The translations under genes and the position numbers were made by a program. Under the pieces are notes generated by a model. The model was not told the origin of the DNA and did no database searches. It worked only from the letters and a program-made list of their open reading frames with translations. Shown in pieces: positions 22,744-28,240 of a stretch of 64,000 nt of DNA (its first letter is position 1; each line of letters opens with the position of its first letter). The stretch comes from Paramecium tetraurelia (lineage: Eukaryota), in NCBI GenBank assembly GCA_000165425.1, contig CT867986.1, positions 434,001 through 498,000 of the forward strand, written 5' to 3'.

Positions 22744-24874
22744 ATGTAAAATTTTCAAGAGGAAACTCTAGTTCGCTCTCTCATTTCCAATATCTGCAGA
22801 CCTATAGTTGAAAAGTAATCAAAGCATCGTAATATAGAATTGAAAATATTCAGAAGGAAGTCGAATGCATCCAGTTTTCCATACATCAGCACGACAGAAA
22901 GATAGATATTTTGTCAGATAAATCAGATCAATTAGCATATGACATGTAGTGCACTCCCATTTATAGTAGCAAACTCAATAACGATGCAATTAGCAATCTC
23001 AGAATGAATATCCAAGATGATGAACAAAAAGTGTTTGATCTGGAAAGGCATTTCAACTTGGAGTTCAATAAAACCAGATTGGAATAGGGGGCTATAAAAT
23101 TGGAATAAGAAAACCAAAAGAAGGAAATCAAAATCTTAGGAGATATACAACAGAGCTTAACTGAGAGAGTTGAAATTTACAATAACTATCTAAGTCAGAA
23201 GTTGTATCAACAAGAATTTTCAATTAACAATGTTGACACTTCCAATTCGAAAGTAGTCAAGCAGTTAACAGAAACTAATCTCAAAGTATCTAATCCCCAA
23301 TATCATTAGAATCAAGAAGAAATATCCTCTCTAAACACATAAACAAAAGATCTCTTATCCAAAATTTAGTACAATGAATAAGAGATCCTTAAAATTTAAT
23401 GTAGCAAATAATGGATGCAAGATATGATCGTAGAATTAAGATAAAAATCCTAATTCTTTTTGACTATCGATCAAATAGATGTGGTCTAGCAGTCATAAAC
23501 ACCCATAAGAATACAACATATTAATAATACTTCAACTATCTAAAAGTATTAATCACATTTTTATTAGTTAAGTTGATTTAGAAAAGATTTAAGAAATTAT
23601 TGATGATAAGTTTCTAGAACTAACAAATGTGATTAATGCTTAAATTCAATAATAATAATAATAATCTCAAGAATAACTTAAAAGTTAATTAGATGAATTC
23701 AAAATAACATTAGTTAAACTTAAAAATGAAAGTGCTAAAAATAGTTAATCTATCAATTCCTATTTAAAGGATTCAAATGAAAAAATATAAAATGCCATAA
23801 ATGTTGCCTAAGATTCAAAAATAAAGTCAAAATAGCAAATCAACCAACTCGATGAATTAATCTAAAAACAACTCCAAAAAATTACTTAAGATATTTAAAC
23901 TATCTAAATCAATATAACTGGACTGGATCTTAGAATGGCTGAAACACATATTAAAGTAGTTAATGTATAAGAAAAACAACATGAAATTCAAGTGCATCAA
24001 ACATCATTTTCATATTTGAACAATCAAAATGAAGTTCTAAATTTTATGCCCATGAAACAAGATTCATTGTGTTCTGATTCCTTTCTAAACAACAATGTTG
24101 CTACCTAAAAAATGACGAAAACAGAGGAAACTATTTAAGCTTAACTTGCATAATAAGTTTAAATGAAAAAAAAAGTAGAAATCTAAATTTAGGACACAGA
24201 ATAAATGCCAATAATTATGTAAAATTTAGATGAATAGGACATTTATATAAAGAACTTACCCAAAATTCAAAATGATATTATTAAACTTAAATCAGACTTT
24301 TTTAATGAATAACAATACAATTAGAATCAAATGACTAAATTATTGAAATCAAAATCAATCACTGATTAATCAATCAAGGATATCGATTAATAATTAAGAT
24401 AGTTTAATTAATATTTCAATGTGATTTTCTCATTGATTTTACATAATGAATTAATAGGAACAGATAATCAAGCAAAAGTCATAGGAAATGGATTTAAATT
24501 TGAATTCATACCATTTCAATAAGACGAAAAAACAATCATGACTTATTAAAACAACAAGATTGCTAAGGTGGACCTACTTATGAAAACTATCACCAGTAGC
24601 CATTCCATTATTAAAAAACAAAGATAAAACACATTCGATTTCTAGTAGGATAATAAAAAGAGGCTTGAAACTGAGACAAGTCGAGAATTAAAAAGTATGA
24701 TTTATGCATATGATTGTAGCTATGTATAGCAACAAGAAGTATAGATTATGGGATGACAAATAAATCACTTAGACTGAGAGACTCAATTTATCTGTGGATG
24801 CTACTGCATATTAACAATTACCAAAGTAGAAAGTAAAGAGGGTTCTAGTAAAGTATAAGAGATTATTAAGTTGA
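22744..24874 (+). CDS. Hypothetical coiled-coil protein
   Basis: Long Q/K/E/N-rich code-6 ORF with tiny introns; no recognisable domain. Confidence 0.55.
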
Positions 24875-24908: not shown

Positions 24909-26431
24909 ATGGAAAATTAATTAATAGCATTTGTGGGTGATCCTGCAGTTGGGAAGACTTCGATTATTAAATATTTAAAGGGATTGGAATTCGAAGAAGA
25001 TTATAGTCCAACTGAATAAATAGAGACCACAGATGTCACAATTCAAAATAATGAAACAATTACAATTTATGATACTCCAGGAAATGCGGCAGAAAGAAAA
25101 TAGGTAATTGAGATGCTAAAGAGTATCCAAGTAGTGTTTGTGTGTTTTGATGTTGAAAATATTGATTCATTTGATTCAACATTATAATGGTTAGATGATA
25201 TCAAAAAATAAATAAACAATTCAATGTAAGTATGTCTGGTGGCTTGTAAAATTGATTCTGATAGCAGATAGATTTCTCAAGAGCAGGCATTTGAATTTAT
25301 TAATGATTATCCTAATGTCGAATATTTAGAAGTGAGTGTGAAGACAGGAGAAAACATGGACATGCTTATAGATGTAACTCAAATTAATTATACCTCAGAA
25401 AATACCTGTGACTACACCTTAAGGCGATGGAGATTTATAATAGTCGTATAGAACCCAACAATCAAATAAACAATCTGAAAAACCTGCTCACAGTCCTGAA
25501 AGACAATCATAGACTTACAAATCCCAAACTAGTTTGTTAAATAAGGAGGAACCCTTGTGGAAAGTCTATGACTTTTTATTTCCAACTGGGAGAGTGGCTA
25601 AATTAGTAAAGATATCAGATGTCGATGCCAAAAATTTGTCCATTTAAGATATTTTGTTTAAATTGCAATTGAATTAAAGTTATCCAGTTGTAAATTTGAT
25701 TGGAGCCAAGGAAACCAATAAGGGGAAATTCTATGCAGGGATTGCTAGGGCCTGTTTTAATACTGTATCCAATTTGTCTTATTTGAATTTAGGATGCTGT
25801 CATTGTAGATAGTGGAATCTCAACTGGCATTGAAAAATACGCGATCAGAAGAGGAGTCAAATTGATTGGAGTGGCTCCGGAATAGGAAGTCAAATATCCG
25901 AATTAAAGTACTGGATTCATTGATCCTTATGAGATTAGTAACGGACATACACATATATTTCTGCTAAGTAATTATGATGAAATTATGAGTTTAGATAACA
26001 AAGAGAAGATGATGGTTTTTGGATTGGAAGGAGTTTTCAAGATAAATTTGTGCAAAAAGTAGAACATTGAGTTTATTTTTAATTTAGATTGGCTGAAGGG
26101 AGGTTGGCAAAAAATGGTCAGAGGGAGAGTATGAAGGTGGTGCACATTCTTTTGGGGGAGCAGGAAGGGTTTTTGAATGAATTGTAGTAGGCAGTTATGG
26201 CCAATCAGCCGATCATAGTGATCAAGGGGTCTCCTTTGTGTGATTAATACTTTTAAAATTATAATAACCCTCATGCGAATTATTCAAATGCAAGTAAGGG
26301 GTGTTTGCATTTATAAAATAGGTTTTGGATAATTGGTGAGGAAGGGCCATTTTTATGGACTAAACAGTTTGGATTCGGAAGATATTGCCCAATATGTCCA
26401 CTTCTTTTTGACAGTGACTCCATATAATTGA
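24909..26431 (+). CDS. Rab/Ras-like small GTPase fused to a SLOG (LSDAT/TRPM N-terminal-like) domain
   Basis: G1 GDPAVGKT, G3 DTPG, G4 CKID, G5 SVK. After intron 25374-25398 and a linker: PVVNLIGA, AVIVDSGISTG, LIGVAP, HTHIFLL, FGLE, PIIVIKGS. Confidence 0.8.
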
Positions 26432-26443
26432 TTAATTATTCTT

Positions 26444-28240
26444 ATGAATTGTAAATTTACGAAATCATATTTTGATGATTCAAAGCCTGCTGATTCATTT
26501 TGGATCAAGCAGCCTCTCGTGATTGAGGAATCCAAAATAGATTATTAATGTCTATTGTTCAAGAAAAGCTATAAAACGGGGTTTTGGGTGAGTAGAAATT
26601 ACTTAATCTACGATTCTAAACTCATCAAGGTCAAAGTAATTCTCATCTTGCTATCTTAGCCAAACATAAGACAATGTCATATTGTAAATCTGAACTTGTC
26701 TAGAATTCAAAAGTTAAAGTACGAAAATAAACAAGAAAAGGAGAGCTTCAATAAGGTTAAAGTGCCTATTCAATTTTTTAGAAGAAATATGGGTTTCGTA
26801 TCATCCGAAATAATCAGTACAGGGAGCTCTACAGTAGATCAAAAGAACTGAATTAATAACTGTGGGAACATTTAAGAAAGTGTGCTATTCTCACTCAATT
26901 CAAAGAGGATTACTCGTTGGAGAAGATGGTCGGCAAGGGGAACTTCGCGAAGGTGTATCAGACTATAAACAAGGAAACCAAAAAATTATATGCTGTAAAA
27001 GTATTTGAAAAATCCAAAATAAAAAATTCTGAAACTGACCGATTAGCCCTGGTAAAGGAAATGACCATAATGAGAAAGTTAGACCACAAGGGTTTAATTA
27101 AAATGTATGAAGTTTATGAAGATGATTCTAATGTCTTCTTTATTTTAGAGTATTTGGAAGGAGGAGAATTACATAATCACATTTAAAAAAATTAAAAATT
27201 CCCTGAAAAAGTAGTTGCCAAAATTCTAGCTACAGTTTTGGATTCATTAGATTACTTATAAAAGTCAAATGTGTTGCATAGAGATTTGAAACCCGATAAT
27301 TTAATCCTAAGGAACAAAGGAATCTTAGATGATGTAGTTATCACTGATTTTGGATTGGCTGACATTTATTCTTCTACTGGAAATTATATGTTCTCAAGAT
27401 GTGGCACTCCAGGATTTGTGGCTCCAGAAGTATTATAGGATAAACTATACGATTTCAAAATCGATATATTTAGTGTCGGTTGTTTAATGTACTTGCTTTT
27501 AACCCACAAGTAAGCCTTTAGAGGAACTAATTATGATGAAATAGTCATGAAAAACTATCATTGTAAAGTGGATTATTAATCAATTGAGAACGAAATATCA
27601 GCTGATGCTATGTCATTATTGAAATAACTTCTTCATCCAAAATCGTAATGCAGACCTTCAGCAAGACTAGCACTTAAGCACAAGTGGTTTTAAACGAATC
27701 TAGATGAAGTTCGATTTAAATAATTAAATTGTGATCTCTCTGAAACTAAAGACTCTACAATGAAGTCGAGTTTAAGTGATATCCCTTTTTTATATCTGAA
27801 TAAGAGTTAAAATTCTAAATTAAATTTCTCGACTCCTCAATAACGTCAAATTATTTAGAAAAACTAAGAATCGTAATTATTCACTCCTTAAGCAATGCTA
27901 CAAATTGATGAGTCTTTAAATGATAACATCAATTCCCTTAAAATTTTGGATGATACTATTACGGATATTCAGGTGGAAGACGAATCTCCATAATCCCATC
28001 TTCTACCTCAATATCAACTTATAAGCAAAATGAAATTAGTTGTGGACTCAAAAGCCTCATCACTCTATGGGTCTCCAATGATTTTGGTAATTATAGATTC
28101 CAATTATAATATAGAATACTCCAGATGTGACTGCAAGGAAGCTAATATAAGGTAATTAGAAAGATGAGATTGCTCAGATTCAACCTCAAAAAAGAGCTAA
28201 TAAAGTAATGAATAATTTAAGAAGTCTTGAATCTTAATGA
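26444..28240 (+). CDS. Ser/Thr protein kinase (CAMK-like) with N-terminal PH-like region
   Basis: GKGNFAKV, YAVKVFEK, HRDLKPDN, DFGLA, CGTPGFVAPE, DIFSVG; N-terminal KKSYKTGFWVSRNY...LWEHL is PH-like. Confidence 0.92.

Follow-up and report, generated by a model that had tools for sequence, protein, structure and literature searches.

Within a window of 64,000 nucleotides of the Paramecium tetraurelia genome (assembly GCA_000165425.1, contig CT867986.1, forward-strand positions 434,001 to 498,000; all coordinates below are those of the window), the plus-strand span 24909-26431 runs from the ATG to the TGA of a single five-exon gene whose predicted product joins a Rab-like GTPase (G) domain to a domain of the SLOG/LSDAT type. 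An original prediction, made from the nucleotide sequence, had placed such a fusion here. When the AT-rich window (GC content 24-35% in 2-kb steps), which has the look of ciliate DNA, was translated with code 6 (NCBI table 6), five open segments of the plus strand joined via four GT..AG introns gave a coding sequence of 1413 nt, comprising 470 codons plus TGA. The spliced product is identical letter for letter to a public P. tetraurelia protein (P0012; GSPATT00004495001, XP_001423799.1, A0BCY4), which carries the automatic name 'LSDAT prokaryote domain-containing protein'. The open spliced frame of 470 codons and its identity to this protein confirm both the gene limits and the first intron as originally proposed. 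A code with one stop makes long open reading frames common; the E-values of the domain matches described below are nonetheless far beyond chance. Minus-strand open reading frames overlapping the gene (e.g. 25615-26283) were dismissed as by-products of this one-stop code.

Exon 1 (24909-25373) encodes the G domain (residues 1-155). Searched alone, it matched Pfam Ras (PF00071) with an E-value of 1.3e-24 and 87.1 bits, the cutoff being 21.6, over profile positions 3-151 of 162. The best sequence matches of the G domain in the PDB were Rab6A/B (E 1.8e-16 to 3e-15), with matches including Ypt6 extending down to 1.2e-12, and a Foldseek search with a structural model of the protein recovered Rab8a and Rab6 for this half. 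Identity to Rab6/Ypt6, the best match at E about 1e-16, is about 30% or less over the 148 aligned residues, but motifs G1-G5 are in register: the P-loop is GDPAVGKT (residues 10-17; 24936-24959), DTPGN (residues 55-59; 25071-25085) aligns with DTAGQ of Rab6, ACKID (CKID, residues 113-116; 25245-25256) with GNKTD and SVK (residues 143-145) with SAK. The P-loop consensus GxxxxGK[ST], the switch-I threonine (T35, aligned with that of Rab6) and DxxG (DTPG, residues 55-58) are thus all present. The catalytic glutamine is replaced by N59 and NKxD by CKID, with Lys and Asp retained, and both DTPGN and (A/G)CKID are invariant in the eight fusion proteins compared (8/8). Compared with Rab6, the switch segments typical of the Rab family are degenerate, with TIGIDF replaced by TEQIET and GQERFRSL by GNAAERKQ. 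The protein, in which the G domain is fused to a SLOG domain, differs from Rab6/Ypt6 also in the lack of a hypervariable tail and of a prenyl cysteine, its C-terminus reading TVTPYN with no Cys among the last 10 residues. Non-canonical G motifs and an absent prenylation cysteine had both been claimed in the original prediction, and both are found. Judged by its sequence, the domain is a member of the Ras superfamily that is Rab-like but not a Rab proper, because a prenylatable C-terminal Cys is lacking and the Rab switch segments are degraded.

These substitutions could be read as those of a pseudo-GTPase, a G domain that no longer cycles (being fixed in one state or nucleotide-free) and that would form a static building block together with a structural SLOG domain. 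Changes of Gln to Asn, of the NKxD Asn to Cys and of SAK to SVK in 8/8 fusions are in keeping with this, as are the degraded switch segments. However, the pattern is unlike that of a decayed site: P-loop, switch-I Thr and DxxG are intact and invariant, as are two residues of NKxD, Lys and Asp. Rab GTPase-activating proteins of the TBC type supply a glutamine in trans, so that a glutamine in cis is dispensable, which also speaks against loss of cycling. A non-cycling module is considered improbable.

Intron 1 (25374-25398; plus strand, 25 nt, GTA..CAG) lies between the G domain and the linker and its removal keeps the frame. It is spliced in 8/8 public fusion models, two each from P. tetraurelia, P. 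octaurelia, P. pentaurelia and P. sonneborni. The linker of about 50 residues (residues 156-205, encoded by 25399-25548 in exon 2) is rich in Q, S, T, P and K and is predicted to be disordered, with a predicted local distance difference test score (pLDDT) below 50 over residues 140-204. Mean pairwise identity among the eight fusions is 94.5% in the G domain, 92.1% in the linker and 96.9% in the SLOG domain, and all are in frame. One could suppose that a small GTPase gene and a gene like Tetrahymena SPIKE1, the relative of the SLOG half described below, have been merged in these models over a false 25-nt intron, and other ciliate members of the family do indeed lack a G domain. Such an artefact is highly improbable. 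The halves are only 25 nt apart, which leaves no space for a terminator and a promoter, and retention of the intron leads to a TGA at 25476-25478, so that the unspliced G-domain frame ends 35 codons on in unconserved sequence. Moreover, Met is absent from the stretch between residues 152 and 342, so that a complete SLOG domain cannot be translated from a start of its own, and the linker is 92% conserved in frame in eight models from four species and two ohnologues. Independent translation of the SLOG half was ruled out, no ATG being available. The in-frame junction through a linker that was originally described is therefore retained: the spliced frame is open, it is that of the public protein and it is kept in the eight fusion models. 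As read from the sequence and the gene models, this argues strongly that G domain, linker and SLOG domain constitute one translation unit. A P. pentaurelia fusion (P0002, 452 residues) lacks nine residues near S-LKVVHILLG, the strand of the second degenerate Gly loop of the SLOG domain, through either a gene-model error (false intron) or damage to this copy.

The remainder of exon 2 (25549-25764) encodes the start of the SLOG/LSDAT domain (the DFLFP strand, PVVNLIGA and GIARA), as seen from alignment with chain 6A of PDB entry 9nw3 and from pLDDT values of 84-97. Beyond intron 2 (25765-25792; 28 nt), exon 3 (25793-26058) carries the SLOG core; intron 3 (26059-26087; 29 nt) separates it from exon 4 (26088-26293), which encodes the second half of the domain including HILLGEQ and PIIVIKGSPLCD. 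Intron 4 (26294-26321; 28 nt), like introns 2 and 3 of the form GTA..TAG on the plus strand, is followed by exon 5 (26322-26431, with the TGA at 26429-26431). This last exon encodes a ciliate-specific C-terminal motif, GHFYGL...SEDIAQYVHFFLTVTPYN, that is conserved in 9nw3 chain 6A as well as in homologues from ciliates. Exon 3 alone matched Pfam LSDAT_prok (PF18171) with an E-value of 2.3e-11 (43.8 bits against a cutoff of 25.4) and exon 4 alone with 5.6e-5, so that Ras and LSDAT_prok are both above cutoff. Precomputed Pfam assignments place PF18171 on both fusion clusters (P0001 and P0002) and PF18139 on P0001 only. The motif order of LSDAT domains that had been recognized in the C-terminal half was recovered in full: PVVNLIGA (residues 251-258), AVIVDSGISTG (279-289; 25796-25828), LIGVAP (301-306), NGHTHIFLL (327-335, with GHTH at 25943-25954), FGLE (353-356) and PIIVIKGS (407-414).

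In an AlphaFold2 model built from a 34-row alignment the SLOG half is confident, 10-residue blocks having a pLDDT mostly of 84-97 with one loop excepted. Comparison of this model by VIA-align with melastatin homology regions (MHR) 1/2 of TRPM2/3/4/5/7/8 gave Z-scores of 18.4-20.2 (ranks 2-50) over about 230-264 residues at 14-19% identity, with a root mean square deviation (rmsd) of 2.9-6.0 A, mostly 3-4. Foldseek E-values to TRPMs were about 1e-8 to 1e-7, and a ciliate LSDAT profile matched the sequences of TRPM8, TRPM2 and TRPM7 with E-values of 9e-5 to 1.6e-2. The Paramecium domain thus shares the fold expected of it, the whole-domain SLOG fold of about 250 residues, together with the motif order, with the MHR1/2 (LSDAT_euk) of TRPM2, TRPM4 and TRPM8. 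In contrast to TRPM channels it is accompanied by no MHR3/4, six-transmembrane pore or TRP domain, and TGG, GG and GSGR of TRPM MHR1/2 are replaced by DSG, GE and GS-P. No transmembrane segment or channel domain was detected by hydropathy, the maximum of 1.15 on the Kyte-Doolittle scale over 19 residues being too low for a transmembrane segment, or among Pfam channel families. The protein ends with the SLOG domain and is channel-less, as had been predicted.

When the whole protein was compared with the PDB, the top match was not a TRPM but chain 6A of entry 9nw3, a 'Cation channel family protein' of 346 residues in an entry titled 'Ciliary tip central pair' and released on 2025-07-30. The match had an E-value of 2.7e-86 in phmmer (293 bits, residues 175-469) and of 3.8e-30 in Foldseek (template modelling score 0.93 by target, 52% identity), and VIA-align gave a Z-score of 37.4 and an rmsd of 1.6 A over 252/256 residues at 54% identity. 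Both are soluble, channel-less LSDAT proteins, 52-54% identical over about 260 residues, and have in common a ciliate-specific N-terminal DFLFP strand and the C-terminal motif SEDIAQY(V/I)HFFLT(V/F)TPY. They differ at the N-terminus: in the Tetrahymena chain this is a short stretch not alignable to the G domain, in the Paramecium protein a 155-residue G domain followed by the linker. The SLOG half is closely related to 9nw3 chain 6A. Bit scores to this chain were 293 for the fusion, 286 for a Pseudocohnilembus protein (P0005), 266 for a Paramecium paralogue consisting of LSDAT only and 258 for a Tetrahymena utriculariae protein (P0020), and by this highest score the fusion is the Paramecium lineage closest to the solved tip protein.

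Chain 6A is very probably SPIKE1 (TTHERM_000686039), given the title of the entry and the fact that, among the 9nw3 sequences, chain 6A alone matches the LSDAT profile. According to the available text of a preprint, the 'spike' density of the central pair at the Tetrahymena ciliary tip is formed by the LSDAT protein TTHERM_000686039, named SPIKE1, which is held between helices and a TPPP-like domain of the scaffold protein TLP2 (bioRxiv 10.1101/2024.12.02.626492, PMC11642885). A fusion of SPIKE1 to green fluorescent protein (GFP) is described there in a distal zone of ~0.87 um in cilia, every tip protein identified has an 8-nm repeat, and the authors state in that text that the function of SPIKE1 is unknown (bioRxiv 10.1101/2024.12.02.626492). 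A later preprint, in the part available, names Spike1 and Spike2 among known tip proteins. Tip localization and TLP2 binding are known for the Tetrahymena protein only.

Soluble LSDAT-only relatives were found in the ciliates Pseudocohnilembus, T. utriculariae, Ichthyophthirius and Stentor, and the LSDAT-only paralogue of Paramecium (about 310 residues) occurs in aurelia species and P. bursaria. In the searches made, the GTPase-LSDAT fusion was confined to eight proteins from four species of the P. aurelia complex. Word-based searches returned Ras together with LSDAT in 2/7, 2/8 and 2/2 matches, each time the same two aurelia clusters, and searches seeded with the G domain returned only these two fusion clusters. 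No cluster with both Ras and LSDAT was found in the ESM Atlas, and no mention of a GTPase-LSDAT fusion in ciliates was found in the SLOG, LSDAT and GTPase literature searched. Genomes of the P. caudatum type may lie outside the searched sets. In an exhaustive profile search, 369 of 1.84 billion representatives matched at E <= 1e-3, and 34 of the best 150 of these 369 matches, picked for having room for an extra domain, were scanned with Pfam. LSDAT_prok was detected in 31/34, with no Pfam match in the other 3/34; the two-transmembrane effector SLATT_1 was present in 8/34 (seven also with DUF4231 below E 1e-3) and a STAND nucleoside triphosphatase (NTPase) domain in 1/34. A Ras domain was found in 0/34 scanned among the matches listed, in a library in which the fusion itself was not seen as a full-length representative, so that the profile search cannot exclude further fusions. 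Ciliate-like relatives with long N-termini have low-complexity sequence where the fusion has its G domain. LSDAT_prok, the best Pfam match of the Paramecium domain, is also the family of the bacterial LSDAT_prok-DUF4231-SLATT_1 conflict proteins, and the D..G, LIGVAP, H(S/T)H and (W/F)GxE motifs are shared with them; the bacterial proteins differ in their SLATT or STAND partners and in having kept both GG loops.

A quick maximum likelihood tree of 27 rows, computed without the 9nw3 sequence and with the Shimodaira-Hasegawa approximate likelihood ratio test (SH-aLRT) as its only support measure, united the fusions with one fragment (P0003) in a clade supported at 99. This clade is nested in a 14-row ciliate clade (SH-aLRT 96) with four subclades, namely the fusions, the Paramecium LSDAT-only proteins, Pseudocohnilembus with a fragment, and Tetrahymena with Ichthyophthirius. 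P0003 (168 residues) is the sequence closest to the SLOG half of the fusion outside the aurelia clusters, with 69% identity over exon 3, and is a fragment that starts in linker-like sequence. Two animal-type proteins, P0106 of Octopus sinensis (1272 residues) and P0125 (989 residues), match LSDAT_euk three to four times in tandem, with no further Pfam family at E <= 1e-3, and appear to be channel-less, multi-SLOG proteins.

The kinship to a structural protein of the ciliary tip suggests, by analogy, that the SLOG domain may serve mainly as a docking module, seated on a microtubule-bound scaffold as SPIKE1 is on TLP2. Docking through the SLOG domain would then take over the localizing role that the prenyl tail has in ordinary Rabs, and the G domain would swing on its disordered tether of about 50 residues as a GTP switch anchored locally. 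Binding of guanine nucleotide is probably retained, given that the domain keeps the P-loop, DxxG, the switch-I Thr and, of NKxD, Lys and Asp. Substitution of Q61 or N116 in Ras is the basis for expecting slow hydrolysis or fast exchange, and with Asn in place of the catalytic Gln and Cys in place of the NKxD Asn the G domain might show either or both, recruiting partners at the dock. This combination of docking and switching is the explanation that we favour, although tentatively, as its localization, its docking and its GTP cycling are all inferred by analogy.

The original prediction had instead pictured a soluble sensor that links an NAD-derived or other nucleotide signal to a GTPase switch; on this model a ligand bound by the SLOG domain would, in the cytosol, allosterically set the nucleotide state of the GTPase or its access to effectors. 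The domain has the fold of TRPM MHR1/2, which in TRPM2 binds ADP-ribose (ADPR) (PMC6759353). Pocket residues were compared in an alignment of eight ciliate, 10 bacterial and two animal LSDAT domains. The first Gly loop reads DGG in 9/10 bacterial rows and in 0/8 ciliate rows, which have D(S/N)(G/S), DSG in the fusion; the second has GG in 10/10 bacterial and 0/8 ciliate rows, which have (G/A)(D/E/N), LLGEQ in the fusion. In the ciliate clade, moreover, NH(S/T)H is replaced by GH(T/S)H, and the loop GSG(R) by GS-x, with one residue fewer. The divergence of the Gly-rich loops that had been noted for this protein is thus a property of all eight ciliate rows. In human TRPM2 MHR1/2, ADPR is reported to be sandwiched by Y295 and a loop; R302 is at the adenosine ribose, and R358 together with a helix N-terminus is at the phosphates (PMC6759353). 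A two-step mapping via a bacterial protein (P0157) and the zebrafish TRPM2 chain of 7aov, made from alignments and not from coordinates, places F353 (26018-26020), K360 (26039-26041) and P415 (26233-26235) at the positions of Y295, R302 and R358, so that an aromatic and a basic residue are kept and an arginine is lost; alignment of P0157 with zebrafish TRPM2 recovers the pattern Y, +7 R, +56 R. Based on these alignments a TRPM2-like ADPR site is doubtful and not intact, since the GG loops are lost throughout the clade and Pro occupies the position of the phosphate-binding Arg. That position is variable, with Arg in only 4/10 bacterial rows, which weakens the argument from its loss without abolishing it.

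Ligand sensing nevertheless has points in its favour besides the fold and the retained F353 and K360. Across bacteria and ciliates, at least 90% of 34 sequences keep each of R272, D283, E291, H329, H331 and E356. The pairing of LSDAT with two-transmembrane SLATT in bacterial relatives is a ligand-triggered architecture, and a review describes SLOG domains, in the text available, as sensors or processors of nucleotides. Such a sensor would also be compatible with a docked location. Set against these are the loss of GG from both Gly loops in 8/8 ciliate rows and the short loop with Pro for Arg, and the closest relative of known structure is a structural protein of the tip, for which the available text describes no ligand (bioRxiv 10.1101/2024.12.02.626492). 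No enzyme that might make a signal is evident next door, where there are a kinase and an open reading frame without a Pfam match, although neighbours carry little weight in a eukaryote. A ligand-gated GTPase is accordingly regarded as possible but rather unlikely, and is ranked second, after docking with switching and before the non-cycling module and, last, the artefact.

Several points weigh against the favoured combination of docking and switching. The near-invariant polar residues are of the kind expected in a working pocket and suggest that the SLOG domain does more than dock passively. Confidence in the AlphaFold2 model is low for the G half (pLDDT 33-66), which is covered by near-identical sequences only. 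The four subclades of the 14-row ciliate clade were not resolved, and one-to-one orthology to SPIKE1 is not established. The identification of chain 6A as SPIKE1 is itself indirect: the available text of the preprint carries placeholder PDB codes (bioRxiv 10.1101/2024.12.02.626492). Finally, no mention of the fusion was found in a literature search with its gene and UniProt identifiers. Of the literature matches listed for '9NW3', none was relevant.

The stretch 25968-25994 within exon 3 (plus strand, 27 nt, GTA..TAG) is in frame, contains no TGA and is translated in the public P. tetraurelia model. It is probably a fifth, unannotated intron, as its nine encoded residues (the SNYDEIMSL region) are missing from all seven other fusion proteins, the ohnologue GSPATT00019201001 included, coincide exactly with a gap in the HMMER alignment to 9nw3 chain 6A and fall in the sole low-confidence loop of the SLOG model (mean pLDDT 35 in block 341-350). 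If it is spliced, the mature protein is likely to have 461 rather than 470 residues. An intron of length 3n without a stop would, if retained, escape nonsense-mediated decay. Downstream, a plus-strand frame at 26527-28167 encodes a complete Ser/Thr kinase domain (Pkinase in Pfam, E 1.4e-68) at residues 129-388, counted in the frame from stop to stop, and starts about 100-250 nt past the stop of the fusion gene. Upstream, a plus-strand frame of 430 codons at 23464-24756, rich in Q, K and N and of coiled-coil appearance, ends 152 nt before the ATG of the fusion gene and has no Pfam match at E <= 1e-3.

Public databases already contain the protein with its Pfam domains, and its SLOG family has a solved and named member; the novelty lies in connecting these facts, through a lineage-restricted fusion of a GTPase to a SPIKE1-type module. 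On the boldest interpretation, which we think unlikely as it stands and offer as speculation, the 8-nm-periodic tip spike of Paramecium would carry an array of tethered Rab-like GTPases at the place where intraflagellar transport trains turn around, with the SLOG domain replacing a lipid anchor and fixing them to microtubules of the central pair, and with its pocket perhaps adding a nucleotide input. If true, this would give a signalling role to a so-far functionless spike. The fusion offers a handle on the function of the tip spike, stated to be unknown in the available account by the Tetrahymena authors, and may by analogy provide an example of a small GTPase localized by a protein domain in place of a prenyl group. 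For the evolution of TRPM and SLOG it adds an LSDAT clade without channels that is found across ciliates and in which the nucleotide pocket has been remodelled. As RNA interference and GFP tagging are routine in Paramecium, the idea is directly testable in the organism itself.

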